This document shows positions 1 through 32,418 of a stretch of 33,489 nt of DNA, one piece after another; the first letter of the stretch is position 1; every line of letters starts with the position of its first letter. The stretch comes from a virus. Lineage: Duplodnaviria; Heunggongvirae; Uroviricota; Caudoviricetes. The translations under genes and the position numbers were made by a program. Below the pieces are notes generated by a model. That model was not told where the DNA came from and ran no database searches. It saw only the letters and a list, made by a program, of their open reading frames with translations. The stretch is from IMG/VR virus record IMGVR_UViG_2541047932_000021; one strand, written 5' to 3'.

Positions 1-1002
1 TTACCCTCTATTGTCAAAAGGGTTCAATTCAACAGCAGCCTCTAAATGACCTGGAGCAAAATGCGCATAACGCATAGTCATTTTTATATCGCTATGCCCC
101 AGTATTTTTTGCAACACAAGAATATTTCCGCCCCGCATCATAAAATGACTGGCAAACGTGTGACGTAGCACATGAGTTAATTGCCCATCAGGAAGCTCGA
201 TCTTCGCTCTCTTAATTGCAGCGTCAAAAGCCTCATAACATGGTGAAAATAGCGCTCCTCGTTTTTTAGGAAGCATAGCCTGCAATTGAGGTGAAATCGG
301 TACAGTGCGGTTCTTCTTTCCTTTAGTTTTAACAAATGTGATTCGACCGGGCAGTACTTGAGATTGCTTTAATCCTTCTGCTTCACTCCACCGAGCACCC
401 GTCGCAAGCCCAATACGGACAACAACCCCCAAATCTTTATTCCGTGACTCATCACACGCAATCAGAAGGCGTTCAATCTCATCTACATACAGAAACGCCA
501 GTTCCTTTTCTTCCTCACGAAACTTGCGAATACCAGTCAGGGGGTTTTCACCAGACCACTCCCCAAGGCGCTTCAGTTCGGCAAAAACAGCATGTAGATA
601 TGACTGCTCGCGATTAACGGTTGCTTCACTAAGTTTTTTCTTCCCCTTGGGATTCCATTCTCCTGATAGCCTTCTTTCCCGATAAGTAGCAAACATATTT
701 TTGTCAAACTGAGAAGCAAATGGATCTCCCAGCCTGGAACAAATCGCCTCAAGTTTGACTTTGCGCTCTGCACCAGAGGACAAGGTTTTACCGTACATCT
801 CAAACCAACGAGCAATCAACTCAGAAAGACGAGGACCAGAACCATCTTGAAACTCGTCTCCAACTCTACTATTCATTAAACGGCGCTCATAAGAGAGCGC
901 CTCACTTTTTGTCGCAAACTGTTTACGAATGCGTTTTCCCGATGCCCCGTAGGGATAACATTCGCAAAGCCATTTACCTGATGGAATCTTACGAACCGAC
1001 AT
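1..1002 (-). CDS. int: P2-family tyrosine integrase
   Basis: 333 aa; motifs TGARWSEA, RITFVKTKGKKNRTVPIS, HVLRHTFASHF, MTMRYAHFAP match P2 Int catalytic R-H-R-Y region; stop codon at positions 1-3. Confidence 0.9.
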   Translation of the reverse strand: MSVRKIPSGKWLCECYPYGASGKRIRKQFATKSEALSYERRLMNSRVGDEFQDGSGPRLSELIARWFEMYGKTLSSGAERKVKLEAICSRLGDPFASQFDKNMFATYRERRLSGEWNPKGKKKLSEATVNREQSYLHAVFAELKRLGEWSGENPLTGIRKFREEEKELAFLYVDEIERLLIACDESRNKDLGVVVRIGLATGARWSEAEGLKQSQVLPGRITFVKTKGKKNRTVPISPQLQAMLPKKRGALFSPCYEAFDAAIKRAKIELPDGQLTHVLRHTFASHFMMRGGNILVLQKILGHSDIKMTMRYAHFAPGHLEAAVELNPFDNRG

Positions 1003-1007
1003 TTTAG

Positions 1008-1355
1008 TTACTTATCACATAAATCAAATGCAGCCTTAGTGACATCCCCCAGACTCTTTTTTAACCCTGGGGCGGCATCATTATCTAGCCAAAATGGATT
1101 ATTGTTATCTAACGGTAACGCACCAAATGTTTTACCTTTTATTCGAGCCAAACCTGTAAGTGCATATAACTTATTATCGTCAAAATTCATCACATAAGGA
1201 TTACCATCAAGACACTGTAATTGAACCTCATCAGTATTAAATGGCCATACCCCATTGAAACTCTCACGTTCAATAGTTTTAAAAGGCATTGCGACGGCGG
1301 AAAAAGAAAACATAGATAAAAAAGTAACTAATAGTTGAACCTTTTTTACTTTCAT
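1008..1355 (-). CDS. Small secreted protein, unknown function (possibly YebY/DUF2511-like); cargo gene between repressor and int
   Basis: 115 aa; N-terminal signal peptide MKVKKVQLLVTFLSMFSFSAVA; two Cys (C49, C113); family guess is from memory only. Confidence 0.55.
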   Translation of the reverse strand: MKVKKVQLLVTFLSMFSFSAVAMPFKTIERESFNGVWPFNTDEVQLQCLDGNPYVMNFDDNKLYALTGLARIKGKTFGALPLDNNNPFWLDNDAAPGLKKSLGDVTKAAFDLCDK

Positions 1356-1384
1356 ATCATTACCTCAATTTAGCTCAAGTAAGA

Positions 1385-2035
1385 TTACAAATTAAAAAAC
1401 GCCCTAGAAATGACACCGCCTACCAAAACCCCTACGCAGATAAAGAATATTATTTCTTTTGGATAAAGTCGGATTAATTCTGAAGCACGAAGTCGGACTT
1501 CTGGTAAGGTCGAACTCTCTGTGTGGCTTGATGCCGATTGTTGCTCTAACCACGACAATGCAGACTGTAACTGAGAACGAGTAAGATCGTTTAAACGTCC
1601 TGTACCGAAATTGATATGGCAATACCGCAGAAGTTTTTGTCGAAGTCCACAGTCTTCACTGTTACGTAGTAATAAACTTACAAGAGCCTTACAGGCATCA
1701 TGATCTTTACATCGCTCAAGCATTGCATGCAGAAAACTCTCCGCTGTTTTATATTGATTTACTGTCATATCATCAATACCAGCTACACCAATCTCCGCAT
1801 GTACTTTTTGCCAAATAATAAACGCTTCAGTATTGCTAGCTTCTGCAATAGCAGCAACCAAGCTATTTAGCTCCTTACGCTGAGCCTTAAGCAAAGGGCG
1901 ATCGTCATCATCATTATTCGAAGGGATTGCGATATTGACGGTCTGAGAACCATCATATCGCTCTATCTGAATATTCTTTTCGTGAAAATCACGCCCAGCA
2001 ACGCGATTGTTTGAACCGTTTGAGTTGACGGCCAT
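1385..2035 (-). CDS. Tail-anchored membrane protein, unknown function; cargo gene in the lysogeny operon
   Basis: 216 aa; single C-terminal hydrophobic helix IIFFICVGVLVGGVISRAFF; N-terminal motif NGSNNRVAGRDFHE shared with the C-terminus of the upstream repressor; AT-rich. Confidence 0.6.
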   Translation of the reverse strand: MAVNSNGSNNRVAGRDFHEKNIQIERYDGSQTVNIAIPSNNDDDDRPLLKAQRKELNSLVAAIAEASNTEAFIIWQKVHAEIGVAGIDDMTVNQYKTAESFLHAMLERCKDHDACKALVSLLLRNSEDCGLRQKLLRYCHINFGTGRLNDLTRSQLQSALSWLEQQSASSHTESSTLPEVRLRASELIRLYPKEIIFFICVGVLVGGVISRAFFNL

Positions 2036-2050
2036 GTCACCTCCCTACTA

Positions 2051-2455
2051 TCACCTACCCTTAGTTTCGTTATAGTCACGACCAGCGATACGGTTATTAC
2101 CACCAGAAATATTTAACTCACGTCCTGATGGCTGAGTTTCCTTTTCACTGATCGCACCTTTTAAAGCCCCAATCACCGCATTTTTCACATCTAACGAAGC
2201 TGCTCGAAAGCGAGTAATCAACTCCTGCTCATCATCGTTATAAGTTTCAGGTGAGTGAATTCCCAACACAACATACTGAACATCAAGGCCAAAACGAGAC
2301 AGCGCTGCCAAATACGCAGCATCAGGAAAGCTATCTCCTTTCTCATATCTAAGCTGAGTTAGCTTTTTGACTCCACCAATGTCGCTCATGGCAACTTGAC
2401 TAAGTCCCAATCTTTCCCTTTCCTCACGCAACCGCTGACCAATATCATTTTTCAT
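2051..2455 (-). CDS. XRE-family HTH repressor, likely immunity repressor (functional analogue of P2 C / 186 CI)
   Basis: 134 aa; N-terminal HTH LGLSQVAMSDIGGVKKLTQLRYEKG; first gene of the leftward operon reading into int; divergent from the early operon. Confidence 0.7.
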   Translation of the reverse strand: MKNDIGQRLREERERLGLSQVAMSDIGGVKKLTQLRYEKGDSFPDAAYLAALSRFGLDVQYVVLGIHSPETYNDDEQELITRFRAASLDVKNAVIGALKGAISEKETQPSGRELNISGGNNRIAGRDYNETKGR

Positions 2456-2464
2456 ACAAAAACC

Positions 2465-2493
2465 TTGACAGGTATCTTTTTTGATACCAAAAT
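2465..2493. promoter_or_regulatory. Candidate early (rightward) promoter and operator in the lysis-lysogeny switch region
   Basis: TTGACA at 2465-2470; inverted repeat GGTATC-TTTTTT-GATACC at 2471-2488; weak -10 CAAAAT at 2488-2493; sits between divergent repressor and early genes. Confidence 0.3.
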
Positions 2494-2530
2494 GATTTCA
2501 CGAGCTATTAGATGATCACAATATACCACT

Positions 2531-2737
2531 ATGAAACAAGTTCTTCACGATACCAGATCACGCATTCCGCGTAACACCGCCACAGGTCCAAGACTGGCAC
2601 TTCGGCTGTCCCTCGAGGAGCGAGCCGTCATTGATGAAATGGCAGCTAAAGAACAACGCTCATCCTCTAACATGGCGCGCATGATCTTCCTTCGCGGCCT
2701 AGAGCTAACCCAGAAAGAACAAAACAAATCTTCCTGA
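2531..2737 (+). CDS. Ribbon-helix-helix (Arc/Mnt/CopG-like) DNA-binding protein, first early gene
   Basis: 68 aa; beta-strand then two helices pattern LALRLSLEERAVIDEMAAKE...SSNMARMIFLRGLE; no obvious SD. Confidence 0.5.
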   Translation: MKQVLHDTRSRIPRNTATGPRLALRLSLEERAVIDEMAAKEQRSSSNMARMIFLRGLELTQKEQNKSS

Positions 2738-2753
2738 TCAGGAGGCTAGTGGG

Positions 2754-2957
2754 ATGTCAGGTATAACCATCAATATCAATGTGAATGCCCCCTATGTATC
2801 CCTGCAGAAATATGCAGAGATAACAGGTATCCCTCTTAATACATGCAAAAAGATGTTGGCTGACGGTCGAATTATTATCCGACCCAAACGCGCCAAAATG
2901 GAAAAGCCTGAAGTAAACCTTGTGGCGATGTTAAAAGACGCTTTGGCTAACAGCTAA
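2754..2957 (+). CDS. Cox/excisionase-like HTH regulator
   Basis: 67 aa; SD GGAGG 8 nt upstream; segment APYVSLQKYAEITGIPLNTCKKMLADGRI resembles the P2 Cox DNA-binding region. Confidence 0.5.
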   Translation: MSGITININVNAPYVSLQKYAEITGIPLNTCKKMLADGRIIIRPKRAKMEKPEVNLVAMLKDALANS

Positions 2958-2978
2958 AACAATGAACAGAGCACCATC

Positions 2979-3329
2979 ATGAAAAAAAACGCTAATAATC
3001 CATACTCCAAATTTCGTAATGGCGTAGAACGCCATGTACACCACGTCGCTACCAGTGCATCACGTAGTAACAGTCGCTATAACCTGAACGAGACGCACGC
3101 AACACCGGATGGCCACGCTGTAAAACAAATCGGCGAGCATGCCTGGCTGATTGAGAAAGCTGGAATCGTGGTCCACAAATGCCCACGCAATCCGTTTACC
3201 GGAAACCGCATTTTTGCATTGAACTGCGGCGACAATCACTTCGGGCAGGATTTCACATTATACGAAGCACTTCGCACGGTTGATCGTCTGCTTCGCGGGC
3301 AAAGTTTTATTAAACAGGCTGATTTATAA
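2979..3329 (+). CDS. Hypothetical early protein
   Basis: 116 aa ORF in the early operon, same strand, tight spacing. Confidence 0.45.
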   Translation: MKKNANNPYSKFRNGVERHVHHVATSASRSNSRYNLNETHATPDGHAVKQIGEHAWLIEKAGIVVHKCPRNPFTGNRIFALNCGDNHFGQDFTLYEALRTVDRLLRGQSFIKQADL

Positions 3330-3339
3330 CAGGTGCTTT

Positions 3340-3618
3340 ATGACCAAAGAGCATGCACAAGGTGTATTTATCCGTTTTATTGATTTTCGCGGTGAACTGT
3401 TATTACGCGCATCAGCCATTGACGTAGTTGTTCCATCCGAAAAAAACGCAGCTACTTACGTTTATCTGAACGGTACGCGCCTGACTGTGGAGCTTCCGTA
3501 CCAGACCGTACGAGAAATCATTAGCGAAGCTGAAAAGGCACGTCAGGTTAATGGCGATGAACCCTATATCGAAATTATTTGTATGGATTCAGAAGCTGAA
3601 ATTCAGAAAGCAGATTAA
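3340..3618 (+). CDS. Hypothetical early protein
   Basis: ATG at 3340 follows the upstream stop at 3327-3329; the longer ORF from 3280 would overlap the preceding gene. Confidence 0.45.
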   Translation: MTKEHAQGVFIRFIDFRGELLLRASAIDVVVPSEKNAATYVYLNGTRLTVELPYQTVREIISEAEKARQVNGDEPYIEIICMDSEAEIQKAD

Positions 3619-3626
3619 AGGGCGTT

Positions 3627-3872
3627 GTGATGGGCAAAGAATATAAAACTCTCATTAACAAAGCACTTGAGCGTTTTTATTTTCGCTTAAGTGCATCAGG
3701 CGCTCATGCTGAACGTGCGGCCCGTGACTCATTGACCAGAGCAATCCGAAGTCTGTATGACGTGGCTTTTTACGCTGATGATCTGGATGCACTTAACGAA
3801 CTTTCCGAGCTGATCTATGCCGCAGAATGCGGGGAACATATTGAACCGTATAAGCTGGGAAATATCGCATGA
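3627..3872 (+). CDS. Hypothetical early protein
   Basis: 81 aa ORF, same operon. Confidence 0.45.
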   Translation: MMGKEYKTLINKALERFYFRLSASGAHAERAARDSLTRAIRSLYDVAFYADDLDALNELSELIYAAECGEHIEPYKLGNIA

Positions 3873-3982
3873 GTATATTTATCTCATGGCTTGTTCTGAT
3901 TATTTCGGTGGTCTGCGCCATTGGGATTATGCGAATTATTAATTCAGTAAAAAAGATTGAACGCTTTTTCACTGAAGAATAA
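3869..3982 (+). CDS. Candidate 37-aa single-pass membrane peptide
   Basis: ATG overlaps the upstream stop (ATGA at 3869-3872); MSIFISWLVLIISVVCAIGIMRIINSVKKIERFFTEE; below the ORF-track size cutoff, found by reading the gap. Confidence 0.3.
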   Translation: MSIFISWLVLIISVVCAIGIMRIINSVKKIERFFTEE

Positions 3983-4068
3983 CCGCGCAAATAAGACCCC
4001 AGGTTAAATAAGAAAATGTGAAAACAATCCGCATTCGCGGAGGTATTCGCACACGCCAAGGAGGCGTA

Positions 4069-4272
4069 ATGGCAATTAAGCATTTTCCCGTCGTTCGTTT
4101 CACCTCCAAAGGACGTGAATACGAAGTTGACGAACGCCTGATTACCACAATCGACAAACACCGTTCAGAAAAGGATGCATATCACATCTATCTCACTGAC
4201 GGCACTTACTTTTGCGCCACCAACGTGGTGCAGGTAAATCTTATCAGACAGGTACAGGAGTCACGCAGATGA
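4069..4272 (+). CDS. Hypothetical early protein
   Basis: ATG at 4069 preceded by AAGGAGG at 4058-4064. Confidence 0.45.
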   Translation: MAIKHFPVVRFTSKGREYEVDERLITTIDKHRSEKDAYHIYLTDGTYFCATNVVQVNLIRQVQESRR

Positions 4273-4514
4273 CCATTCTGGACTACATCGCTGCCAATCC
4301 GGGTTGTAGCGGTGGAGAAATCGCCGCAGCACTGAATACACCAACCACAACCATTAATGCGGAGCTACGCCGTCTCTGGCGCAGCGGTTCAGTCATAAGA
4401 AAAGAGCGCAAAACAGGCGGTCGCTTTTCTTATCAGGTAAACCCGATGCCGTTTGGGTGTAGCAACCCACTAACCCAGATGTTCAACCAGCTACTGAGGG
4501 AAATCAGAGCATGA
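4269..4514 (+). CDS. Small winged-helix-like DNA-binding protein
   Basis: 81 aa from ATG 4269 overlapping the upstream stop; MTILDYIAANPGCSGGEIAAALNTPTTTINAELRRLWRSGSVIRKE resembles a wHTH fold. Confidence 0.45.
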   Translation: MTILDYIAANPGCSGGEIAAALNTPTTTINAELRRLWRSGSVIRKERKTGGRFSYQVNPMPFGCSNPLTQMFNQLLREIRA

Positions 4515-4655
4515 GCACCTCCAACTGCCGGAAACCACGTCGGGCTTCAGCAGCTCATCCGGCAGCAAAACAAACTCCATTAATTCCTGTTCCGGGTCTT
4601 TCCTGCACCTTGTGGCGGGAGGCCTTCGCACATCTGTAACAAGAGGATTGCCGCA

Positions 4656-5021
4656 ATGATTCTCGCCAACGACTTTCTTGAATACCTGCTCAACACAGAG
4701 CGTGATCTTGCCGTTCGCGTGCGTGAACGTTATGACATGTACCTGAAATCCCTGCCTGTACCGCAGCTCGCTGACGGAAAGATTGTTATTGATGGTCGCT
4801 ACATGATTGACAGCCACGAGGGAAATTACAGGCTTTACCGCATTGAAGGTGGCACCCCGTCCGTTATTGGCATTTACCAGCGCCCATCCTCTGCAATCGT
4901 CAATGTGATTGCCGACAGCATCCGCATCACACATCGCCATGCCGACACAGAAGACACCGTGCTGGAAATTCAGCGGCTGGCTACAGTCTGCCGCGACACC
5001 CTGAATGGCATGACGAAGTAA
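4656..5021 (+). CDS. Hypothetical protein immediately upstream of A (position of P2 gene B)
   Basis: 121 aa ORF; function inferred from position only. Confidence 0.4.
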   Translation: MILANDFLEYLLNTERDLAVRVRERYDMYLKSLPVPQLADGKIVIDGRYMIDSHEGNYRLYRIEGGTPSVIGIYQRPSSAIVNVIADSIRITHRHADTEDTVLEIQRLATVCRDTLNGMTK

Positions 5022-5027
5022 ATCACT

Positions 5028-7685
5028 ATGACGGCAGAGTACATCAGGGACTGGCAACAACCGCGCCACGCAGTGGGGCGTGAAGGAACGGGGATCCCCG
5101 CTCCTGAATCCGCGCTTTCCTCCTGGCTGGATGCCTACCGGGCAGAGAACGAGCGCCGCCAGGAAATGGCTGATGCGGCGTTCTCCGCCACGCCGCTGGG
5201 CAACCTGATTAATAAAAGCCTGGACGCACAGGAAAAACAGGACAAAACAATCACACTGGCAGGAGACGCCAGAAAACAGGCACGCGGCGCGGTAGATGAG
5301 GCCATGGCCTCACTGCGCCTGCTGCCGTCCTATCTGCGCGATCCGCTTATTCGCCACCTCTCCTTCCTGCGCAAAAAACAGGAAGCCGATCGTCAGAAAG
5401 GAAAAAACGCCAGGCAGGCAGAACGCTATGCGCGTGGGACCCTGCGCAAAATATTCGAACGTCTGGAGCGCACCGATCACCGCTGGCTGACATCGGGTTA
5501 TCGCTCCCTTGCCGGACGTGAACGCCTGGACGATTTGCTTTACCTGCCGCAACTCAACAAACACCAGATACAGACGCTGGCCACCATGACGGCGGCGATG
5601 TTCAGCAGCACCTTCGAAAAACTCTGCGATGGTTTTGGCGCGACTGATGGCGAGCTGACCATGGATGTAACGCTGAAGGCGTATCAGATGCTGGCCCGCA
5701 TGGCGTTACACTTACACGCCATGCCTCCGCATTATGACGCACTGACAACAGACAAAGACCGGAGGCACGAACCGGACACAGAACTGCTGCCGGGCGCAAT
5801 CCTTCGCCTGACCTGTGCGGAATGGTGGAAACGCAAACTGTGGCTGTTACGTTGCGAGTGGAGAGAAGAACAACTCCGCGCCGCCTGTCTGGTTTCCAGA
5901 AAAACATCGCCCTATCTGAGCCAGGACGCGTTAAGCGAGTTTCGCGCACAGCGCGAGAAAACACGCGATTTCCTGAAAAGTTTCATGCTGGAAAATGAAG
6001 ACGGGTTCACGATTGATCTCGAGACGGTGTATTACGCGGGAGTAAGTAACCCGGTTCACCGTAAGGCAGAAATGATGGCCACCATGAAGGGGCTGGAACT
6101 TCTGGCCGAAGCCCGTGGCGACAAAGCGGTGTTTCTGACTGTCACCTGCCCGTCAAAATACCACGCCACAACGGAGAACGGTCATCCGAATCCCAAATGG
6201 AACGGGGCCACAATGCGCGACTCCAGCGATTACCTGGTTAACACGTTTTTTGCGGCGGTCCGCAAAAAACTGAACCGCGACGACCTGCGCTGGTATGGCA
6301 TCCGCACGGTGGAGCCTCATCATGACGGCACCGTGCACTGGCATATGATGGTCTTTGCACATCCGGAAGAAATCGACACCATTGTGTCCCATACCCGCGA
6401 TATTGCCATTCAGGAAGACCGCCACGAGCTGGGCAATGATATTACTCCGCGCTTTAAGGTGGAGTATGTCGACGGCTCAAAAGGCACGCCAACCAGCTAC
6501 ATCGCCACCTACATCGGAAAGAACCTGGACAGCCGCGCCGTGGATGGCATCGACCCGAAAACGGACAAGCCACGCGTGGACCACGAAACCGGAAAATCAA
6601 TGGCCGAGAGCGTGGAACGCGCCATCGGCTGGGCGCGTCTTCACCGCGTCCGCCAGTTCCAGTTCTTTGGTATCCCCCCCCGTCAGGTATGGCGTGAACT
6701 CCGCCGCCTTGCCAGTCAGATGGCCCGCAACCCGGAAGGTCCACAACGTCTGGAAAATGACGCAATGGATGCGGTACTCGCTGCCGCTGATGCCGGGTGT
6801 TTTGCCACCTACATTGAGAAACAGGGTGGCGTACTTGTTCCACGCAAAGACTACCTGATTCGCACCGCCTACGACCTCGCAGAAGAGCTGAACGATTACG
6901 GCGAGCAAAGCGTACAGATTTACGGGATCTGGTCGCCACAAATCGGGGAATCTTCCCGCGTGTGCACGCACCCGGATAACTGGAAGCTGGTAAGACGTAA
7001 ACCGGAAGCGGAAGACAGCGCCCGCGAAAATGGTTTTGACCTTCAGGGCGGCCCTGCCGCCCCTTGGACTCGTGGCAATAACTGTCCCCGTGTACAGGAA
7101 ACGGACAACAACGGGACAGAACAGCCGGAAGAACGGCCAGCACCGTGGCCGCAGCTCCCTGACGGCGTTGAAGTGAACGAATGGATGCGCTCACTGAAAC
7201 GGCACGAACGCCGGGCGCTGATGCGTTCGCTTCGTGACAAACAGGCAAAAAACAGCAGTGATGAAGCGCAGAGCTGGACACAGAGCCGCAAACAGCAGCG
7301 GCCTTTGCCTGATAACCACGAATTACTCGCTAAAGAATGGCGGGAGTCTGCTGAATCTCTCGGCCTGCATATCGGTGAACAACAGATGCAGCACCTGTTA
7401 CGGGGCGGCAGTCTGTACGTTGACGGCAGCATCATTGCACCGCAGGGATTTGAAATTGTACGCAAACCGGATACCCGCCTGGACAGCCGAATCACGCAGC
7501 TCTGGCAGCGCCTGAGCCGTAATCATGGCGTAAGCAGCACGGAGATCCGCCATAACCCGGTCGCCAGCTATCTGGCACAGCTGGGGGCATCAGACCCTGA
7601 AGCCGCCGCACGCCTGGCATCGCCCCCATCAGTTGCGGCGGAACGCGGTGCGCAGCCAGCACATCATCACGGGATGCCGCCTTAA
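5028..7685 (+). CDS. A: Rolling-circle replication initiator endonuclease gpA (HUH family); 3' end uncertain
   Basis: 885 aa; HUH motif region HHDGTVHWHMMVFAHPEE; tyrosine region TSYIATYIGKN; ORF overlaps convergent Q by 194 nt so the true stop may be earlier. Confidence 0.8.
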   Translation: MTAEYIRDWQQPRHAVGREGTGIPAPESALSSWLDAYRAENERRQEMADAAFSATPLGNLINKSLDAQEKQDKTITLAGDARKQARGAVDEAMASLRLLPSYLRDPLIRHLSFLRKKQEADRQKGKNARQAERYARGTLRKIFERLERTDHRWLTSGYRSLAGRERLDDLLYLPQLNKHQIQTLATMTAAMFSSTFEKLCDGFGATDGELTMDVTLKAYQMLARMALHLHAMPPHYDALTTDKDRRHEPDTELLPGAILRLTCAEWWKRKLWLLRCEWREEQLRAACLVSRKTSPYLSQDALSEFRAQREKTRDFLKSFMLENEDGFTIDLETVYYAGVSNPVHRKAEMMATMKGLELLAEARGDKAVFLTVTCPSKYHATTENGHPNPKWNGATMRDSSDYLVNTFFAAVRKKLNRDDLRWYGIRTVEPHHDGTVHWHMMVFAHPEEIDTIVSHTRDIAIQEDRHELGNDITPRFKVEYVDGSKGTPTSYIATYIGKNLDSRAVDGIDPKTDKPRVDHETGKSMAESVERAIGWARLHRVRQFQFFGIPPRQVWRELRRLASQMARNPEGPQRLENDAMDAVLAAADAGCFATYIEKQGGVLVPRKDYLIRTAYDLAEELNDYGEQSVQIYGIWSPQIGESSRVCTHPDNWKLVRRKPEAEDSARENGFDLQGGPAAPWTRGNNCPRVQETDNNGTEQPEERPAPWPQLPDGVEVNEWMRSLKRHERRALMRSLRDKQAKNSSDEAQSWTQSRKQQRPLPDNHELLAKEWRESAESLGLHIGEQQMQHLLRGGSLYVDGSIIAPQGFEIVRKPDTRLDSRITQLWQRLSRNHGVSSTEIRHNPVASYLAQLGASDPEAAARLASPPSVAAERGAQPAHHHGMPP

Positions 7686-8496
7686 CATTCATGAACTCAT
7701 CCTTTGCGGTGATCTGCTGGAACGGCAAAATTTGCACCCCCTCTTTGCCCCCGTTGGGCGCATGGATGAGCACGTTTTTAAACGCGCCACCACCACGCGC
7801 ACCCTGTAACGTTTCTTTCAGGGAGTCCATGCTTTCGCGGTTTACCTGCGCTGCACCGATGTAGATGATGCACCCGGCGTGGGATCCATTGTCGTAATAC
7901 AGTTTTCTGAACATGTCCGCCGAATGAGACAGGCTGGCCGAGAGTAATGCGCCAAGATATTCCGGCATGCCGTAAATTTCCTGGTTAATGTCCGGATTCA
8001 TCAGGTGGCACACTTTGCCAGGGCGAAACTGAAACGCATCCTTGCCATCCTGCACATACCACCATGATTCAAGATCGCTTCCGCGTCGCATGTATTTCGC
8101 CAGGGCGTGCCGTAATTTAAGCGGTTCGCCGAACATATTGCTTCGAAGCTCAAGGAATGCGTTACCGAACACAAACCAGTCCAGCGCCAGCGCCGAGAAA
8201 TCCTGCCGGGAAAGCAGCGGGTGCGGGATGTAGCACCCGAGCAATACGTTGCGCTTAAAGTAAAGCGCAGACTGATGCCAGGACGTTTGCCGGGCGGCTC
8301 TTGCCAGACCGTACCAGTCCACCGGGGTTTCATACCACCGCCCGTTATCAGCACAGTACATATTGTCCAGCAAATCATGCCCGGTCAGGCGATAAGGACC
8401 ATCAAAAGTGAATGCACTGAGCGACGATTCTTTCCTGAGCGCATCAGCGAGATCAATGCGTGAACTCATGCGCACTTTTTTATTTTTTCTGCTCAT
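7492..8496 (-). CDS. Q: Portal (capsid) protein gpQ; 3' end uncertain
   Basis: 334 aa; P2 Q-like sequence through VPPQLMG; Pro/Gly-rich tail overlaps the A ORF end. Confidence 0.8.
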   Translation of the reverse strand: MSRKNKKVRMSSRIDLADALRKESSLSAFTFDGPYRLTGHDLLDNMYCADNGRWYETPVDWYGLARAARQTSWHQSALYFKRNVLLGCYIPHPLLSRQDFSALALDWFVFGNAFLELRSNMFGEPLKLRHALAKYMRRGSDLESWWYVQDGKDAFQFRPGKVCHLMNPDINQEIYGMPEYLGALLSASLSHSADMFRKLYYDNGSHAGCIIYIGAAQVNRESMDSLKETLQGARGGGAFKNVLIHAPNGGKEGVQILPFQQITAKDEFMNVKAASRDDVLAAHRVPPQLMGAMPGVRRLQGLMPPAVPDSWRPGYGGSPCCLRHDYGSGAARAA

Positions 8497-10246
8497 CAGA
8501 ACTCCATAACTGTGAAACGCTCGTTTTCTCCTTCGCCGCCAATTGGTTCGTTAATGACAGCAAGCATGGTTGCCCACGCAAGGTCGCCGTGGCTGCTCCC
8601 CCTCGCGCGGTCCGTTTCGTAAGTGATAAAGCCGCCCGGTGTTTTCACCTTACGCACGGCGTTAAAGGCCGCGACCAGCTCGCGTTCGGCGCGATCGTAT
8701 TCCCACCGCCCGGCACGCATTATTTGCAGCATTTTCAGTACAAGCGACCGTTTTGATGACAGCGTGAAGGTGTACGGAATAGCGGCAGGGAAAAACCGTT
8801 TCACTATCTGATAAACAGCCTCCCCGTTCCCGCCCGTCACATCAATGCCGATGTGTTCCACGTTGTAGCGATACGTGAAATCTTCAATGACTCTGGCCTG
8901 TTCTTCAAACTCCAGCCCCTGAACGCGTCGCGTCTCCACCGTTCGAAAACGGCCACCAGGAACAGCCGGAGGAACCACCACGGACACAGCGCCGCTGTCG
9001 CCGTTGCCACTGCTGCCGTTTGCGTCATACCCAATCCATACCGGACGATTCCCCATCGGGCGGGGAGCAAAAGGTTTCCAGTCTTTCCAGTCGTCGTATC
9101 CGTCAACACCGCAGCCAATCAGGATATTCAGGTTAAATGCCGATTCCCCTTCGCGGACAAACTCACACATATAGAGATTGAGGAACTCGTCTTCGGTGTT
9201 TTCATCACGAATTTCGTCGATATCGGTGTGTTTCCAGCCGTGATTAACCACATCTTCCAGCGTGACAATTTGCCGCCACGTCCGGTCAGGGCAGATAAGC
9301 CCGTTATGCAGCGTTTTCCAGTCCACAGAAAAACGCTGGCGTTTATGCGTGGCCTTTTTCTCGTTCCAGCGGTCGCCGTTCCAGTAGGCGTATGCTTCGT
9401 GCGTTTCGGTGGATGGCGTGGAGAAGTAGGTGCGCCGCAATCCGCTGAGGGTTGCCATAGCGCCAGCCACCTTGCGCAGTTCAGCAAAGCGACTGACCCA
9501 GAAAAATTCATCAAAATAAAAATTGCCCGTATAGGACTGCGCCGACGCAGCAGAAGTGCCGAGAAAATGCAGCTCTGCGCCGTTGGAGAGGATGATTTTA
9601 TCGCCCCCTTTCAGCTCCACATCAACTTCAGCCGCAGCCTTCTGAATAATGCTTTTAAACTGGAACGCCTGACGACGCGACGCAGACAAAAAATCTGGTT
9701 ACGCTGGTAAGGTTGCGCCACATCGTCACGCAGCGCCATCAGCAGTGCTTCCTGTGCAAAATACCAGGTCGCGCCAATCTGTCGGGATTTCAGGATCATC
9801 CTGTTACGTATCCCGGCTTCCCTGCAAAGGGTCAGGGAGTCAAACCAGCCCCGCTGATGCCACTCCAGCCTGCTGATGATTTTTTCCCGCAGTGCGGCAA
9901 TCTGTTCCGGCGTGAAATGATTTTTGAGTTTTTTCGCCCGGCCTTTCTTTCCTGTGGCCGTCGCATCCGGCTGGCCATCATGCATTTTTTTAAGCTGCCG
10001 GGTCAGCAGGTCTATTTCCTTAAAGTCACCGCCTGTTTTATTCTGTTTTTCAGTAAGCTGGATGAGGCGCGCATCGATGGACTGCGTGACACGCTGCACG
10101 GGTGGCGTTTCATCCCACTGGTCGCGTTTTTTCCACGCATAAATCGTGTTCGGGTTTATTCCCATCAGACGTGATATTTCTGCGGGCGGATAACCCTGCC
10201 AGTAAAGTTGCCGCGCACGCTGGCGCACAAAAGCGTCCTGAATCAT
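8496..10246 (-). pseudogene. P: Large terminase (ATPase) subunit gpP, interrupted by a 1-nt frameshift in a homopolymer
   Basis: N-terminal ORF 9611..10246 and C-terminal ORF 8496..9689 are each P2 gpP-like; frames diverge at the A6 run 9688-9693; one extra A would give a continuous ~583-aa protein reading NQIF-LSAS. Confidence 0.75.
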
Positions 10247-10400
10247 TGCTCCCCCTGAGTAATTACAGGAAGATTACCCGCGCGCGAAACCGTTCTCCTT
10301 AACCCCCTGTTCTGGCCGTTTTCTTACAACAAAAGCCCTTTGTATCAGCCTGTTACGCTTTGCCATCATGACTGAAGAACCAGTCAGAGGGGCAAAAACT

Positions 10401-11237
10401 ATGGCTAATGAAAAAAAGACATCCCGCAAAAAGTTTCGCGTGGCTGTCTCCGGATCAACTGTTGATGGCCGCGAAATCAGCCAGGTACATCTGCGTGAAG
10501 CCGCCGAGAACTTCAACCCGGATGTTTACGCTGCCCGCGTGAACGTTGAGCACTATCTCTCGCCATGCCCGTCAAGCGAATTTTCCGCAATGGGCGATGT
10601 CACCGCGCTGAGTACGGAAGATATTACGGAAGGCCCGCTGGCCGGACGTACTGCGCTGTATGCAGAAATCGAACCGACCGAGCGCATGAAGCAGCTTGTC
10701 GCTGACGGCAAGAAAATCTATTCCAGTATCGAACTGCACCCGCAGTTCTCCGTTAACGGGCGCGCCTATCTGGTCGGGCTGGCGATGACCGACACCCCGG
10801 CAAGCCTGGGCACTGAGCGCCTGAAATTCACGGCACAGCAACGTCAGGCGGTGATGACGTTCAACAGTATCCAGGGTGAAGCACCGCTTATCTCCGAAGC
10901 CATCGAGTCTGAAATCATCGAAATGGCAGAACAACGCCAGGAAGAAGGCACCCAGTGGTTTAACCGCGTAATGGGGATTATTGGTCGTGGCCGCAAAGCG
11001 GATGACGCCAGTTTCTCCCGAATTCAGGAAGCGGTGGAAGGCGTTGCAACGTCACAGGCCGACATTATCGACCGTTTTAATGTGCTGGAAACCCGCCATC
11101 AGCAGGACCGCCAGAAAATCACGTCACTGACCACAGAGCTGACAGCATTGAAGGAAAAACTGCGCACGCAGGACGGCGATCCGCAGAACCGCTTCACCGC
11201 AACGGGCGCAGCCTCCGACCAGCTGGCTGACTTCTGA
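10401..11237 (+). CDS. O: Capsid scaffolding protein gpO
   Basis: Start ATG 10401 (MANEKKTSRKKFRVAV); P2 gpO-like motifs YLVGLAMTDTPASLGTE. Confidence 0.85.
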   Translation: MANEKKTSRKKFRVAVSGSTVDGREISQVHLREAAENFNPDVYAARVNVEHYLSPCPSSEFSAMGDVTALSTEDITEGPLAGRTALYAEIEPTERMKQLVADGKKIYSSIELHPQFSVNGRAYLVGLAMTDTPASLGTERLKFTAQQRQAVMTFNSIQGEAPLISEAIESEIIEMAEQRQEEGTQWFNRVMGIIGRGRKADDASFSRIQEAVEGVATSQADIIDRFNVLETRHQQDRQKITSLTTELTALKEKLRTQDGDPQNRFTATGAASDQLADF

Positions 11238-11260
11238 TAAGACAAAGGAGCAAATTTTTT

Positions 11261-12358: not shown

Positions 12359-13159
12359 ATGATTACTCCTGCACAACAACACTGGCAGAACGTGATGGCA
12401 CAGCGCGCAGGCCGGGCGAATGAAGGTGTGGACCACGCCGCGCGTACCGCGCATGAAGAGGTGCTGTATCGTCTGCGTCTGGCACAGGCCAGGCTAAAGG
12501 GCGTACAGGCCAGAAGCGCGAAAGCCGCCATCAAAAAAGAGTTGTTGCCGGACTTTTCCGGCTGGATTGAGGGAACGCTGGAGACTGACGGCGGGCAACA
12601 GGACGAAGTAATTGCCACGCTGATGGTGTGGGCGATTGACTGCGGCGATCTTCCGCTGGCGCTGCGTATTGGTGCATATGTGGTCCGTCACAACCTCATC
12701 ATGCCGGATAACTTTGGCCGTACTGCTGCCACGGTACTGACCGAAGAAATCTGCAACCCGGTACTGACGCAGGCCGGGACGGATGCCGACGCGGATTTAT
12801 CCGCCTTTATCGAACCACTGGACACACTTTGGGAAATTGTCGCCAACCAGGACATGCCGGACGAAGTGCGCGCCAAATTATGCAAGGCGTGTGCCTTTGC
12901 CCGTCGTGGCCTGACCGATGCAGACAACATGGCCTCATCACTGAAGCTGCTGCGCGAAGCGATGCACCTGAACCCGAACGCAGGTGTGAAACGCGAGATT
13001 GCAACCCTTTCCCGCGCCCTGAAAAAAGCCGATTCCGCAGCCGCACCAGAAGACGCCAGCGCACAGCAGACGCAGGACGAAAGCAGCAAAAGTAAAAAGA
13101 CAACGCAGAAGCCTGCAACACGAAAAACCACCGCGTCGCAGAAGGCGAAGCGCGGTTAA
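12359..13159 (+). CDS. M: Terminase small (endonuclease) subunit gpM
   Basis: 266 aa; DMPDEVRAKL and AGVKREI motifs as in P2 gpM; basic C-terminal tail. Confidence 0.85.
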   Translation: MITPAQQHWQNVMAQRAGRANEGVDHAARTAHEEVLYRLRLAQARLKGVQARSAKAAIKKELLPDFSGWIEGTLETDGGQQDEVIATLMVWAIDCGDLPLALRIGAYVVRHNLIMPDNFGRTAATVLTEEICNPVLTQAGTDADADLSAFIEPLDTLWEIVANQDMPDEVRAKLCKACAFARRGLTDADNMASSLKLLREAMHLNPNAGVKREIATLSRALKKADSAAAPEDASAQQTQDESSKSKKTTQKPATRKTTASQKAKRG

Positions 13160-13262
13160 CGACTGACCCCGTCAGCGGGCGGCGTGCGCGGTGTTCCGGT
13201 TTGACTCCGTGACCGTTTACACCGCGCACCCACCGCCCGATTTTTTTTCAGGAGTGAACTCC

Positions 13263-13757
13263 ATGAGTATGGTTGCCAGAACTGAACCAGGACCCGCAGA
13301 GGACGACATCACCGATACCGATGATGGCGACACTCGCATTTCAGCAGGTGCATTCTGGCCGGATATTGTGCTGCGCGAGCTGCGTCTGGCGGTACGACTG
13401 CCGGGCCGCGTGACCACCTCCCGCCTGCTGCATACCGCCACTGGGGCCGTGGCTCACGTTACCCGCGAACTGGAAGCGTGGCAGCAGGAACAGCAGGCGG
13501 CTGGCCATCAGACGCTGGCCGATGTTCCGGCACCCGTAATTAACGGAGAAAGCGTCAATCTCTGGCACTGGCGCAATGCTGTTTATACCGCCACACGTGC
13601 CCTGATTCTGGAGCGTTACCGCGATGCGGACACAACGGACAAGGGCGATCGCCGGGCGGACGCACTGGATATACAGACATCGGATTTGTGGCGCGATGTG
13701 AGCTGGGCCATCTCTGACATTCTGTGCCGCCCGCGAATCTTTGCGGAGTTGTGCTGA
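13263..13757 (+). CDS. L: Head completion/stabilisation protein gpL
   Basis: ATG 13263 after SD AGGAGTG; the longer ORF from 13191 lacks an SD. Confidence 0.75.
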   Translation: MSMVARTEPGPAEDDITDTDDGDTRISAGAFWPDIVLRELRLAVRLPGRVTTSRLLHTATGAVAHVTRELEAWQQEQQAAGHQTLADVPAPVINGESVNLWHWRNAVYTATRALILERYRDADTTDKGDRRADALDIQTSDLWRDVSWAISDILCRPRIFAELC

Positions 13758-15142: not shown

Positions 15143-15218
15143 CGCGGATAAACGGGCCATTGCTGAACTGGATAAGAGAATAGCCGAACTGACACACCAG
15201 ACGGGAGTAACACAATGA
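14907..15218 (+). CDS. o-spanin (Rz1/LysC-like outer-membrane lipoprotein), partly nested in the i-spanin gene
   Basis: Different frame starting inside the i-spanin gene; lipobox LLTGC; proline-rich; SD GGAGAGG before GTG 14907 (alternative start ATG 14937). Confidence 0.7.
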   Translation: MNSYATILQKMNAPTLCLTLVLLTGCAGTQNAPRPAPSIRLIPQTLTMPVTPPPFPAPPTWGNLGIWGDRLLDALETCNADKRAIAELDKRIAELTHQTGVTQ

Positions 15219-17095
15219 CCAGTAAGAACTTTGCACTGATTACAGCCATGACACAGGCTGAACTGACCCGGAAAGTGAATGAATATCTTGCGAAGGGGTG
15301 GCATCTTCAGGGGGACACACGGGTAGCTTACGAGCCCGGCACCCCGTGGTATCTCATGCAGGCCATGGTGGCCGATGGTGCCACCGAGACGCCCTCTGAG
15401 CCATTACCAAACAACAAGACGCCGGAATGGTACTACGTGGTTGTGCTTGCCGGGCAGTCCAACGGCATGGCTTACGGTGAAGGGCTTCCGTTACCGGATT
15501 CTTACGATGCTCCGGATCCGCGCATTAAACAGCTTGCGCGCCGCAGTACGGTAACCCCGGGTGGAGAGGGTTGTACGTATAACGACATCATCCCGGCTGA
15601 CCACTGTCTGCATGATGTGCAGGATATGAGTACGCTGAATCATCCGAAGGCGGACCTGAGCAAAGGTCAGTACGGCTGTGTGGGACAGGGACTTCATATT
15701 GCCAAAAAACTACTCCCGTATATCCCGAATAACGCGGGGATCCTGCTGGTACCATGCTGTCGTGGTGGTTCGGCATTCACTCAGGGCGCGGAGGGAACAT
15801 TCAGTACGACCACGGGGGCCAGCCAGGATTCGGCGCGCTGGGGTGCGGGTAAGCCGTTATATCAGGACCTGATCGCACGCACCAAAGCGGCATTACAGAA
15901 GAACCCGAAAAATGTGTTGCTGGCGGTGTGCTGGATGCAGGGCGAATTTGACATGAGCGCTGCCACCTACGCACAGCAACCGGACCTGTTCACGGCCATG
16001 CTGAAGCAGTTCCGTACTGACCTTTCCGGATTTAACGCGCAGTGCCATGGCGGCAGTGCTGCAGTTATACCGTGGATTTGTGGCGACACGACGTATTACT
16101 GGAAAAACACATACGGCACACAGTATGACTCCGTCTACGGCGCGTACAAAAACAGGGAGAGCGACAACGTTTTCTTTGTGCCGTTCATGACCGACGGTAA
16201 CGGCAACAACACGCCCACCAACTTACCGGCAGAAGACCCGGATATTGCTGATGCAGGTTATTACGGCGCGCAATCCCGTAGTAATGGTAATTGGGTATCG
16301 TCAAATCGTCCGACACATTTCAGTTCATGGGCGCGCAGGGGCATTATTTCGGATCGCCTGGCAACCGCTATTCTGAACGCAGTTGGTCGAACCAGCGCCT
16401 TCATCAGCGGTACCGCACCGGAAATCAAACCCTCGCCCGGCGGCGACACTCCATCGGGGCCGTCTGATGGTGACACATCCGTTCGTACAGTCTCCCTGCT
16501 GCCGACAGCCGGAGAGGCTGCTGCGCAGGGCTGGACCATCACCGGCGGCAGTGTTGCGCTGGAAGATGGTGTGTTTAAGGTTACCAAGCAGAGCAATAAA
16601 ACTTGGTCCCTGATGCATCCGGTGGATGACGCAGTCTCCCTGCTGACACGGGGTGGCAGACTGAGCTGTAAGTTTCGACTGTCAGGCGCACTGACCAACA
16701 ACCAGTTCGGTCTGGGAATTTATCTGTATACCGATGTAGCGTTACCTGACGTCGTGGCGATGACCGGGACTGGTAACCCGTTCCTGATGTCGTTCTTCAC
16801 CCAGACCACAGACGGCAAACTGAATCTGATGCATCACAAGAAAGCCGGAAACACAAAGTTGGGTGAGTTCGGGAATTACAGTAACGACTGGCAGACGCTG
16901 GAGCTGGTGTTCACCGCCGGCAGTGCCACGGTTACTCCGAAACTGAATGGAGTGGCTGGCCCGGCATTCCAGGTCATAAAAGACAGTCTGACACTGGGGC
17001 TGAATGCGCTGACGTTAACTGATATCACTAAAAATGCCGCGTACGGCGTCGATATCGGCAGCCTGGTGCTGGAAATCAATAATCCCGCAGTATAA
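15215..17095 (+). CDS. NanS-p-like carbohydrate O-acetylesterase (DUF1737 N-domain, SASA/SGNH-type esterase core, C-terminal beta-rich domain)
   Basis: 626 aa; N-terminus MTSKNFALITAMTQAELTRKVNEYLAKGWHLQGD; GQSN motif in VVVLAGQSNGMAYGE; ATG overlaps the o-spanin stop. Confidence 0.7.
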   Translation: MTSKNFALITAMTQAELTRKVNEYLAKGWHLQGDTRVAYEPGTPWYLMQAMVADGATETPSEPLPNNKTPEWYYVVVLAGQSNGMAYGEGLPLPDSYDAPDPRIKQLARRSTVTPGGEGCTYNDIIPADHCLHDVQDMSTLNHPKADLSKGQYGCVGQGLHIAKKLLPYIPNNAGILLVPCCRGGSAFTQGAEGTFSTTTGASQDSARWGAGKPLYQDLIARTKAALQKNPKNVLLAVCWMQGEFDMSAATYAQQPDLFTAMLKQFRTDLSGFNAQCHGGSAAVIPWICGDTTYYWKNTYGTQYDSVYGAYKNRESDNVFFVPFMTDGNGNNTPTNLPAEDPDIADAGYYGAQSRSNGNWVSSNRPTHFSSWARRGIISDRLATAILNAVGRTSAFISGTAPEIKPSPGGDTPSGPSDGDTSVRTVSLLPTAGEAAAQGWTITGGSVALEDGVFKVTKQSNKTWSLMHPVDDAVSLLTRGGRLSCKFRLSGALTNNQFGLGIYLYTDVALPDVVAMTGTGNPFLMSFFTQTTDGKLNLMHHKKAGNTKLGEFGNYSNDWQTLELVFTAGSATVTPKLNGVAGPAFQVIKDSLTLGLNALTLTDITKNAAYGVDIGSLVLEINNPAV

Positions 17096-22640: not shown

Positions 22641-23218
22641 TGACATTCAGAATGAGTGAACAATCACGGACCATAAAAATTTATAATCTACTGACCGGAA
22701 CCAATGAGTTTATTGGTGAAGGTGATGCATACATTTCACCTCATACAGGTCTGCCTGCAAACAGTACCGATATTGCCCCGCCAGATATTCCGGCTGGCTT
22801 CGTGGCCGTTTTCAACAGTGATGAGGCATCGTGGCATCTCGTTGAAGACCATCGGGGTAAAACGGTTTATGACGTGGCATCAGGGGACTCGTTATTTATT
22901 TCTGAACTCGGTCCGTTACCGGAAAATGTTACCTGGTTGTCGCCGTATGGAGAGTATCAGAAGTGGAACGGCACATCCTGGGTGAAAGATGCAGAAGCAG
23001 AAAAACTATTTCGGATAAGGGAGGCGGAAGAAACAAAAAACAGCCTGATGCAGGTAGCCAGTGAGCATATTGCACCACTTCAGGATGCTATAGATTTAGA
23101 TATTGCGACGGAGGAAGAGACATCGTTACTGGCTGCATGGAAGACATATCGAGTATTGTTGCATCGTGTTGATACAACAGTAGCAGCAGATATTGAGTGG
23201 CCAGTCGCCCCACAATAA
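22640..23218 (+). CDS. G: Tail fibre assembly chaperone gpG
   Basis: 192 aa; ATG overlaps the H stop; Tfa-like sequence. Confidence 0.85.
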
Positions 23219-23261: not shown

Positions 23262-23834
23262 CTATTTATACAATACAGCACCGCTCTTTTTAGTTATATA
23301 TGTGCAGTTCGATGGTATATCTTTATTTATAAAAGACATTGCACCTATTTTTACATTATCCCCAATTTTACGGGATAATCCAATGATGCAACAATTAGCT
23401 CCGATATCAACGTTGCTACCAATTTTTACTCTTGAACCAGGTATGTCACCATCTATCTGTCCAATGGTCGTATTCTGTCGTAACACCAGATTTTCACCAG
23501 CATCAACAGCAAAATGAACAACAATTCCAGCATGATGGGGAATTGTTAACCCTTTTCCAATATTTGCGCCCAATCCAATTTCGCAACCAAATTTGTTAAT
23601 TATTTTACTGTTTAACTTCTTGGCTGCTTTCTTATGTAATTTATTACCATTAATATACATTTCGTTAGCCAACCGCCACCAGAAAAGGAAATTCCTGTTA
23701 CGCTGCTTTTTCTCTCTTAAAAGCCTCCAGATATCCATACGTTTCCGCCGAATTACTTCATGTTTCCAGAAGTTTTTTAAATTAGTAGAGTTCCCAAATA
23801 AAACAAAGTGAATTGCCATTAGGTAAGACAGCAC
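23262..23834 (-). CDS. Hexapeptide-repeat (left-handed beta-helix) acetyltransferase, CysE/NodL/NeuO-like; AT-rich cargo gene
   Basis: Core HHAGIVVHFAVDAGENLVLRQNTTIG...KIGSNVDIGANCCIIG; start set at GTG 23834 with AAGGAG 6 nt upstream (ORF track begins at 23867); AT-rich compared with flanking tail genes. Confidence 0.65.
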   Translation of the reverse strand: MLSYLMAIHFVLFGNSTNLKNFWKHEVIRRKRMDIWRLLREKKQRNRNFLFWWRLANEMYINGNKLHKKAAKKLNSKIINKFGCEIGLGANIGKGLTIPHHAGIVVHFAVDAGENLVLRQNTTIGQIDGDIPGSRVKIGSNVDIGANCCIIGLSRKIGDNVKIGAMSFINKDIPSNCTYITKKSGAVLYK

Positions 23835-32334: not shown

Positions 32335-32418
32335 AGTTTAAACAGCACGTGCACTACCATTGTTTCTGCATATCGCCACACCATCGCCACTCAACCGCCA
32401 TTGCACAAAATACAAATA

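Follow-up and report, generated by a model that had tools for sequence, protein, structure and literature searches.

The A/Q gene overlap of a P88-type Escherichia coli prophage as the scar of a 2,983-bp deletion

In P2-like phages gpA and gpQ flank the cos-proximal region (PMC9122126), with which the P2 annotation agrees. Phage P2 (NC_001895) carries this interval in the order A–orf91–tin–old–cos–Q, and P88-type phages share the general layout, in which a replication gene with an internal origin and a cargo hotspot are followed by cos and a convergent portal gene. The two types differ in that they belong to separate genera, with an A protein of 761 aa in P2 and 940 aa in P88-type phages, and with tin/old replaced by parM/parR as cargo.

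The closest described relatives of the locus analyzed here are phage P88 and Xuanwuvirus prophages such as that of E. coli 2013C-3342 (NZ_CP027766.1, 1892636-1928215), which share its gene order from the B-like gene to D at 96-99% nucleotide identity. Prophages of the 2013C-3342 type also have in common with it the yecA/tRNA-Leu site, a 124-bp att repeat, a 940-aa-type A gene, and portal, terminase, capsid, lysis and tail genes. A member of the same prophage family occupies the same chromosomal site in E. coli O157:H7 strain TR01 (NZ_CP033605.1). It, too, is inactivated by a deletion spanning cos and portal, but that deletion is far larger: it starts beyond parR, runs as far as the tail-fibre assembly gene, has an IS3-family element at its border and does not touch A. 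The deletion described below is small, bordered by microhomology, and spares all other structural genes. The degraded TR01 prophage is probably the cryptic prophage CP-933T.

Prophage identity and the A/Q junction

The window, by which we mean the whole 33,489-nt stretch of DNA analyzed, is a P88-type (Xuanwuvirus, Peduoviridae) E. coli prophage and not a P2-type one. It is collinear with P88 at 96.5-97.9% identity (blastn), and its top phage matches are Xuanwuvirus records. Twenty-six P88 proteins align over approximately their full length, most at 94-100% identity, with four diverged (39-78%; integrase, I and E; H and G partly). Only A, Q and P are interrupted relative to P88, the fibre genes H and G aligning in part through divergence. 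Unlike the rest, the immunity/integrase module departs from P88 (integrase 39% identical) and matches the 2013C-3342 prophage. Integration occurred at the 3′ end of tRNA-Leu(taa), between yecA and pgsA: the 124-bp repeat (32418..32541) overlaps the 3′ 55 nt of this tRNA gene, and a second att copy lies outside the window, just left of int in the 2013C-3342 prophage and in contigs L009, L010 and L011. Compared with intact P88-type prophages, the window lacks 2,983 bp and carries a −1 frameshift in the large terminase gene.

The ORF listing of the window places A, with 885 aa, at 5028..7685 on the plus strand and Q, with 334 aa, at 7492..8496 on the minus strand, so that the two overlap tail to tail over 194 nt (7492..7685). 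The initial annotation had recorded this overlap correctly, along with its high GC content (64.9%, compared with 56.7% across the A and Q genes and 52.3% in the window) and the lack of a cargo gene; no accessory gene lies between A and the cos position, the P2-type cargo hotspot, anywhere in the window. It had also described A as about 120 aa longer than P2 gpA, which holds numerically (885 versus 761 aa), but the two proteins are 31% identical and the right comparator is the P88-type A of 940 aa, relative to which the ORF is 55 aa shorter. We conclude that the overlap is almost certainly the scar of a 2,983-bp deletion, which fused two truncated genes in a P88-type prophage that cannot package.

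The deletion was delimited against P88 and the 99%-identical intact prophage of 2013C-3342. Homology to both references breaks exactly at 7611-7621, from either side, with a gap at the junction of 2,965 bp relative to P88 and 2,983 bp relative to the 2013C-3342 prophage. In blastn alignments, window positions 4586..7621 match P88 positions 1..3036 (96.5% identity) and 7611..11000 match 6001..9391 (97.6%); positions 1..7621 correspond to 637..8274 of the 2013C-3342 prophage record (99.6%). At the junction (7611..7621) a single repeat copy, CGCCTGGCATC, is kept, with a perfect core, GGCATC, at 7616..7621.

A base-by-base three-way comparison, together with translation of the tails, resolves each ORF into a genuine gene fragment and an out-of-context extension. 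The truncated replication endonuclease gene A′ (5028..7621, plus strand) comprises codons 1-864 of the 940-codon P88-type A, and in tblastn P88 A aligns over aa 1-865 only of the 885-aa ORF. Its tail (7622..7685, plus strand) consists of 21 codons, SPPSVAAERGAQPAHHHGMPP, and a stop, and is 100% portal-gene sequence on the opposite strand. Conversely, the truncated portal gene Q′ (7616..8496, minus strand) retains codons 1-293 of 348, with ~54 C-terminal codons gone, and continues through 41 codons and a stop (7492..7615, minus strand) that are antisense to A and 100% identical to intact A genes of many E. coli genomes. The P88 portal aligns to aa 1-297 of the 334-aa ORF, similarity to P2 gpQ (47% identity) ends at aa 294, and coverage of the Pfam portal profile falls from 60-294 to 46-241 of 321. 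In place of the intact P88-type portal of 348 aa, the window thus encodes aa 1-293 followed by 41 unrelated residues.

Based on the reference annotation, the missing segment holds the 3′ end of A, ParM, a plasmid-stability protein, two hypothetical genes, a non-coding block and the 3′ end of the portal gene. Intact relatives encode as cargo ParM (PF06406/PF21523), a Plasmid_stab_B protein (PF10784) and two small ORFs without a Pfam match, and their A and Q genes have separate stops ~2.6 kb apart. No part of the 2,983-bp segment was found elsewhere in the window, and its relocation within the window was therefore rejected. A terminator scan detected no terminator-like site between the two ORFs in the window; hairpins of the intact A–Q interval disappeared with the deletion, an observation to which we attach no functional claim.

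The cos region and packaging functions

The initial annotation had found no P2-type cos sequence, and indeed the P2 cos 19-mer has no match in the window at up to 3 mismatches on either strand, the best match having 5. Yet the complete genome of P88, a viable phage, lacks the P2 and 186 19-mers just as the window does; in P88, the intact relative and the window alike, even the best matches to either have at least 4-5 mismatches. Absence from the window is therefore uninformative by itself; the P2 19-mer is an invalid probe for P88-type phages, and the P2 frame of reference as a whole (a 761-aa gpA, tin/old and the P2 cos 19-mer) is unfit for them.

Where, then, would cos lie in this group? Each of the 16 P88-like phage records has a conserved non-coding block in the A–Q interval (10610-11085 of the 2013C-3342 prophage record), and a phage of another genus shares the core of this block. 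The most conserved core, GCGCAGGTGACGGGGGAACAGCCC, is a candidate cos. The linear record of phage P88_4B11 begins inside the block, without terminal redundancy; it is the only such start among the record and contig ends, and the IMG/VR contigs with the block are mostly proviruses, whose ends are uninformative. In gapped scans with P2 and 186 cos probes, similarity of the block did not rise above the genome-wide background. A 45-nt match to the flank of P2 cos (P2 nt 39-82) scored 44, above the 39 reached at most by shuffled sequences, but it lies in the inverted orientation and was set aside as a cos locator, and a literature search on cos of P88 or Xuanwuvirus returned nothing. Based on synteny and conservation rather than on a mapped cleavage site, we infer that cos lay within the deleted block. 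The entire A–Q interval between the replication and portal genes, this conserved block included, is gone from the window without remnant, and the earlier suggestion that cos might be embedded in coding sequence is wrong.

A second lesion affects the large terminase subunit (gpP; 8496..10246, minus strand), whose gene is a pseudogene: a poly-A run at 9688, A7 in intact relatives, is A6 in the window and shifts the frame by −1. Two ORFs of 211 and 397 aa result, divided at codon 186, close to where the ATPase domain starts. The small subunit, gpM (12359..13159), has its full length in alignment to viable P88, and so do the late genes other than portal and large terminase. The A6 frameshift is common to carrier contigs L003, L009, L010 and L012-L015, and one carrier, L011, retains the A7 run and a terminase of 583 aa together with the deletion, suggesting that the deletion probably preceded the frameshift.

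With the cos region deleted, the portal truncated and, in the window copy, the large terminase frameshifted, the prophage cannot package its own DNA, and the suspicion of compromised packaging voiced in the initial annotation was well founded. A′, in turn, keeps the catalytic domain and a putative origin. The Phage_GPA domain (aa 179-503; PF05840, E=3.6e-131) is intact, and within the gene, 555 bp ahead of the junction, an ori-like sequence (7037..7086, plus strand; nick equivalent ~7066/7067) has been kept. In local alignment to the P2 origin, positioned from the P2 annotation (29892 ± 60), it scored 45, compared with a maximum of 30 in 200 shuffles.

Origin of the deletion

In the intact progenitor, represented by the 2013C-3342 prophage, short direct repeats mark both breakpoints: CGCCTGGCATC on the A side (8264-8274) and CGCCCGGCATC on the Q side (11247-11257). 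The copy left at the junction and the Q-side copy agree at 10 of 11 bases, with GGCATC as their core. By an empirical estimate, microhomology of at least 6 nt is expected at just 0.27% (0.0027) of random 2,983-bp deletions in the prophage.

The course of events can be reconstructed as follows. Probably while the prophage resided in the chromosome, 2,983 bp were lost between the imperfect direct repeats CGCC(T/C)GGCATC, one situated 229 nt before the A stop and the other within the convergent Q, 161 nt from its 3′ end. The deletion took A codons 865-940 (the last 76) and Q codons ~295-348, and with them the parM/parR partition cassette and two small genes, the terminators on which the two transcription units ended, and the ~480-bp conserved block adjoining Q that presumably contains cos in the P88-type group. 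Deprived of their own stops, A′ and Q′ read across the junction into each other's antisense strand until a chance stop, adding 21 and 41 codons, respectively, and this read-through of both genes produces the 194-nt GC-rich overlap. The initial annotation had considered an artificially extended ORF end. Both ends are artificial, but the cause is the 2,983-bp deletion and not a small indel or error.

Retention of one repeat copy (10/11 nt, 6-nt core) and loss of the intervening DNA are typical of microhomology-mediated, RecA-independent deletions in bacteria, and no feature sets the present one apart from that class. We infer such a recombination event, to which replication slippage and end joining fit equally, and an origin in the prophage state, since a genome lacking cos and a functional portal could not have been packaged and delivered.

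The most credible alternative, though on balance an unlikely one, is that terminase cut cos in situ in an un-excised prophage during abortive induction, and that the resulting lethal break in the chromosome was resected to both sides and sealed by microhomology-mediated (alternative) end joining, leaving only cos-less cells as survivors. The deletion spans the putative cos-containing block, junction microhomology is typical of end joining, P88-type phages are inducible (PMC5285337, PMC6456863), and cos ends have been speculated to be recombination substrates (PMC9122126). The intact terminase of L011 suggests that the enzyme was probably functional when the deletion arose, and the independent, larger O157:H7 deletion in the same prophage family also spans cos. 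However, slippage between the 10/11-nt direct repeats gives an identical scar, and the breakpoints sit at very unequal distances from the candidate cos (roughly 2.4-2.7 kb to the left versus 0.3-0.6 kb to the right). In O157:H7, moreover, the deletion goes with an IS element and not with microhomology. Such repair would bear on how the deletion originated and not on the identity of the locus.

More broadly, it is improbable that the deletion was non-random, either as the scar of terminase-cut survivors or as a selected step toward a non-transmissible tail/lysis/cargo module. The form of domestication in which selection keeps the cos-less prophage as a tailocin or lysis cassette, or for its immunity or cargo genes, with packaging loss being adaptive, appears very improbable. 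In its favour, comparison with viable P88 shows every tail, baseplate, fibre, lysis and late-control gene at full length, many isolates still carry the allele, and the cargo genes for a SASA/DUF6645 esterase, a serine acetyltransferase and Hok/Gef are intact. Against this, carriers differ by ~0.03-0.2%, indicating a recent event after which intactness is expected without selection, and the capsid genes, needless for a tailocin, are equally intact. The accumulation of more inactivating terminase mutations fits neutral decay of the packaging module but is silent on selection for tail genes.

The deletion is inherited by many isolates. The same junction occurs in at least 10 independent public assemblies. 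Its exact 40-mer is present in an independent IMG/VR contig, which over 14.3 kb aligns to the window without gaps and with 4 SNPs, and at least 19 contigs, drawn from NCBI and from Logan assemblies of different projects, encode the chimeric 334-aa ORF in identical form. The 9 of these contigs that were compared in full all contain the junction, at 0-28 SNPs from the window, and two of them have the same yecA flank; carrier strains include E. coli UMEA 3292-1 and that of assembly GCA_001285965.1. Support comes throughout from draft or short-read assemblies, many of them independent; a search for the junction in 5,426 complete E. coli genomes and in GTDB species-representative genomes gave no match. 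Its absence from the complete E. coli genomes searched, and a homopolymer-length frameshift in terminase of the type that sequencing errors make, might be taken to indicate an artefact, in which ~3 kb was collapsed, or one ORF lengthened by an indel error, in a genome whose A and Q genes are separate with cos between them. This explanation is effectively refuted, as the same junction and chimeric ORFs recur in at least four NCBI assemblies, in several Logan assemblies built from unrelated runs and in the genome of an IMG isolate. These assemblies differ from the window by SNPs, most share the terminase A6 allele, and a repeat of 11 nt is too short for assembly collapse; recurrence across so many independent assemblies identifies the junction as an inherited allele.

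A genuinely compact arrangement, with a true overlap of A and Q tails and cos inside coding sequence, is suggested by the long, uninterrupted ORFs and their GC-rich overlap but is refuted by intact relatives of 99% identity, which have 2,983 bp more and separate stops, by the truncated portal Pfam match, and by the tails themselves, which are partner-gene antisense, are not conserved in orthologues and begin where orthologue homology ends; no element of the conserved cos block is present in the window.

Implications for annotation and prophage decay

We read the deletion as ordinary prophage decay. Its main value lies in annotation and triage, and it opens no new biological question. Most prophage callers would score this 33-kb prophage as intact, every functional module being present, and both chimeric ORFs have been deposited publicly, as "portal protein" and "replication protein A". 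If the deletion were non-random after all, and if P2-like prophages repeatedly undergo cos-spanning deletions at microhomologies, such deletions would define a specific, testable route of domestication. As ordinary decay, the locus offers a small, clean case of stepwise inactivation in one E. coli lineage, from deletion to terminase frameshift to nonsense mutation.

Origin of the convergent overlap

The truncated replication endonuclease gene (A'; 885 aa, 5028..7685, + strand) and the truncated portal gene (Q'; 334 aa, 7492..8496, − strand) overlap tail-to-tail by 194 nt (7492..7685) in the ORF list of the window. The overlap is GC-rich (64.9%, vs 56.7% across both genes), and no further ORF, and hence no cargo gene, lies between A' and Q', all as described in the initial annotation. 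Its choice of P2 as reference frame was misleading. In megablast searches of phage records, the right part of the region is 96–98% identical to P88-type phages (Xuanwuvirus, Peduoviridae), not to P2, and the matches all begin at window ~7609–7616 rather than at the ORF end. The P88 annotation gives a replication protein of 940 aa and a portal of 348 aa; A', which had been considered about 120 aa longer than P2 gpA, falls 55 aa short of its true orthologue.

Comparison with P88 by blastn yields two collinear blocks (window 4586..7621 = P88 locus 1..3036; window 7611..11000 = P88 locus 6001..9391) that have 11 nt of the window in common, with ~2.97 kb of P88 absent between them. Base by base, A-gene sequence is perfect up to 7621, and antisense portal-gene sequence is perfect from 7616, or from 7611 with one mismatch. 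Relative to the closest intact relative, the prophage of E. coli 2013C-3342 (NZ_CP027766.1; 99.2–99.6% identical), the window lacks exactly 2,983 bp (8275..11257 of that locus). The repeat kept at the junction is CGCCTGGCATC; the copies in the 2013C-3342 genome are CGCCTGGCATC on the A side and CGCCCGGCATC on the Q side. Of random deletions of this size in the prophage, only 0.27% would be expected to show microhomology of at least 6 nt, and the short-repeat junction is a signature of microhomology-mediated illegitimate recombination.

Neither A' nor Q' has its own stop codon. A' continues through 21 codons of antisense portal sequence and Q' through 41 codons of antisense A sequence, with similarity to P88 A ending at residue 865 of 885 and similarity to P2 gpQ at residue 294 of 334. 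The overlap exists because each truncated gene, its stop lost, reads into the antisense strand of its partner, and this explains it entirely. The earlier suspicion of an artificially extended ORF end was thus correct, for both ORFs, but the cause is a 3-kb deletion instead of an indel.

The 2013C-3342 prophage has its own lesions, not found in the window: W and the tail fibre are frameshifted, and the portal has lost 6 nt in frame (at window 8181). Its early region also carries the 17-nt segment CATGAGTATATTTATCT as a tandem duplication, a segment absent from the window at 3868.

The deleted segment and the probable site of cos

The inventory of the deleted segment, drawn from the intact relative's annotation and Pfam, comprises A codons 865–940, genes for a ParM actin-like segregation ATPase and a Plasmid_stab_B (ParR/StbB-like) protein, two small ORFs for which Pfam gave no hits, roughly 510 bp of non-coding DNA, and the final ~54 portal codons; no fragment of it was found elsewhere in the window. 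In the 2013C-3342 prophage the ParM/ParR-like (StbA/StbB) plasmid-partition cassette lies between A and cos (8580..9858 of its locus), as it does in P88 and P88_4B11. This cargo, lost from the window, is kept across several records of intact P88-type phages, which may point to a plasmid-like phase or to a role in stabilisation.

What was the function of the lost non-coding DNA? In P2-like phages cos generally lies between the A-side cargo and Q (PMC9122126), and in P2 and 186 it is found there 170–180 bp past the portal stop. In P88-type phages, ~480 bp adjoining Q are non-coding and conserved in 16/16 related phage records. A 150-bp core (10629..10779 in the 2013C-3342 locus) is conserved even in another Peduoviridae genus, in Enterobacter phage phiT5282H (1501..1651 of its locus). 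This core holds a near-invariant GCGCAGGTGACGGGGGAACAGCCC and three TGCAC(A)A repeats, and the linear record of P88_4B11 begins within the conserved block. We regard the core as a candidate P88-type cos or terminase-binding region. The block's similarity to P2 cos is not above background, and a 45-nt match to the P2 cos flank is in inverted orientation; neither P2 cos similarity nor the P2/186 19-mers pinned down the cleavage site of P88-type phages. The P2 cos 19-mer has no match in the window at ≤3 mismatches, in line with the initial annotation, but the P2 and 186 19-mers are missing even from viable P88. From synteny and conservation we infer, with good support, that cos has been deleted from the window. 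The proposal that cos is embedded in coding sequence is wrong, given that both ORF ends are artificial and the non-coding block next to Q is gone.

Inheritance of the allele and the remaining genes

The junction 40-mer was found in one IMG/VR isolate-genome contig; over 14.3 kb this contig aligns to the window without gaps and differs by 4 SNPs. At least 19 contigs bear the exact chimeric 334-aa ORF, their sources including GCA_001285965.1 and GCA_017117645.1 (NCBI), strain UMEA 3292-1 and a number of unrelated Logan runs, and the exact chimeric 885-aa A ORF occurs in strain 3-475-03_S3_C2. All nine fetched loci carry the junction, with 0–28 SNPs relative to the window, and the two longest have the same yecA flank. 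Independent assemblies share the junction while differing by SNPs, so that it represents not an assembly artefact but an inherited allele of a single chromosomal prophage. The allele is rare, being absent from GTDB representative genomes and from all 5,426 complete E. coli genomes, though 1,381 of the latter carry related A or Q sequence. One carrier (ERR180867) shows ~20 clustered SNPs and a 2-nt indel in the small-terminase/head-completion region (equivalent to window 12915..13346), a pattern suggestive of a patch acquired by homologous recombination from another P88-type prophage.

The large terminase gene (8496..10246, −) has lost 1 nt from a poly-A run (A7 to A6 at 9688); the resulting −1 frameshift breaks it at codon 186, close to where the ATPase domain begins, into ORFs of 211 and 397 aa. 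Intact relatives have A7. One carrier (SRR12769913) keeps A7 and an intact 583-aa terminase, whereas most have A6, and two carriers (L009 and L012) combine this frameshift with a nonsense change at window 10060. Since the carriers show three terminase states, one of them intact, the parsimonious order is A–Q deletion, then frameshift, then nonsense mutation. Elsewhere, O, N, M, L, X, holin, endolysin, LysB-like, R, S, V, W, J, I, U, T, E, FII, FI and D align over their full length to viable P88; H and G are diverged from it but uninterrupted. Replication of the prophage might survive, because both the P2 origin-homologous sequence inside A (7037..7086) and the catalytic GPA domain of A' are kept.

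A 124-bp att repeat (32418..32541) overlaps the 3' 55 nt of tRNA-Leu(taa) (32487..32573, −). The window runs exactly from the integrase stop codon (position 1) to the pgsA start codon (33489); attL is not in it because the second copy lies 107–230 bp left of that stop. A gene of 626 aa (15215..17095, +), whose product has SASA (sialate O-acetylesterase-like) and DUF6645 domains, separates the lysis genes from tail gene R. It looks like a ~2-kb cargo insertion common to the window and the 2013C-3342 prophage; P88 has nothing at this place. A serine O-acetyltransferase-like gene (23262..23867, −) follows the tail-fibre assembly gene, where P88 instead has an invertible alternative fibre segment and a DNA invertase, and may be lysogenic-conversion cargo. 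An Rfam IS009 match (22983..23181, +; 177 bits, gathering score 117) lies wholly within the tail-fibre assembly gene (22640..23218), and what this "sRNA" family captures is probably conserved prophage coding sequence.

Proposed deletion mechanism and probable loss of packaging

Since a genome that lacks cos and portal cannot be packaged, we propose that the deletion arose in a lysogen, probably when the short repeat allowed replication slippage or end joining. It is also conceivable that in situ cleavage of cos by terminase left a break that microhomology-mediated joining then mended, an attractive but unproven alternative. The intact terminase of one carrier is compatible with such a cut, though not diagnostic, and the same holds for an independent cos-spanning deletion in E. 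coli O157:H7 TR01 (NZ_CP033605.1 2498643..2520379), whose prophage belongs to this family and occupies the same yecA/tRNA-Leu site. That deletion, however, is IS-associated: much larger than the one in the window, it extends from just past parR to the tail-fibre assembly gene and is edged by an IS3-family element, in a prophage where IS elements have also damaged gene D and the tape-measure gene is frameshifted.

By either route, the deletion would abolish packaging through the loss of cos and of the C-terminal ~54 portal residues, and the broken terminase ATPase of this copy would add to the defect; the initial annotation rightly saw packaging ability at stake. The window prophage is a member of the P88-type family that lacks three of the features defining a packaging-competent cos phage, and its convergent overlap is the scar of a deletion, a form of prophage decay that is well known.
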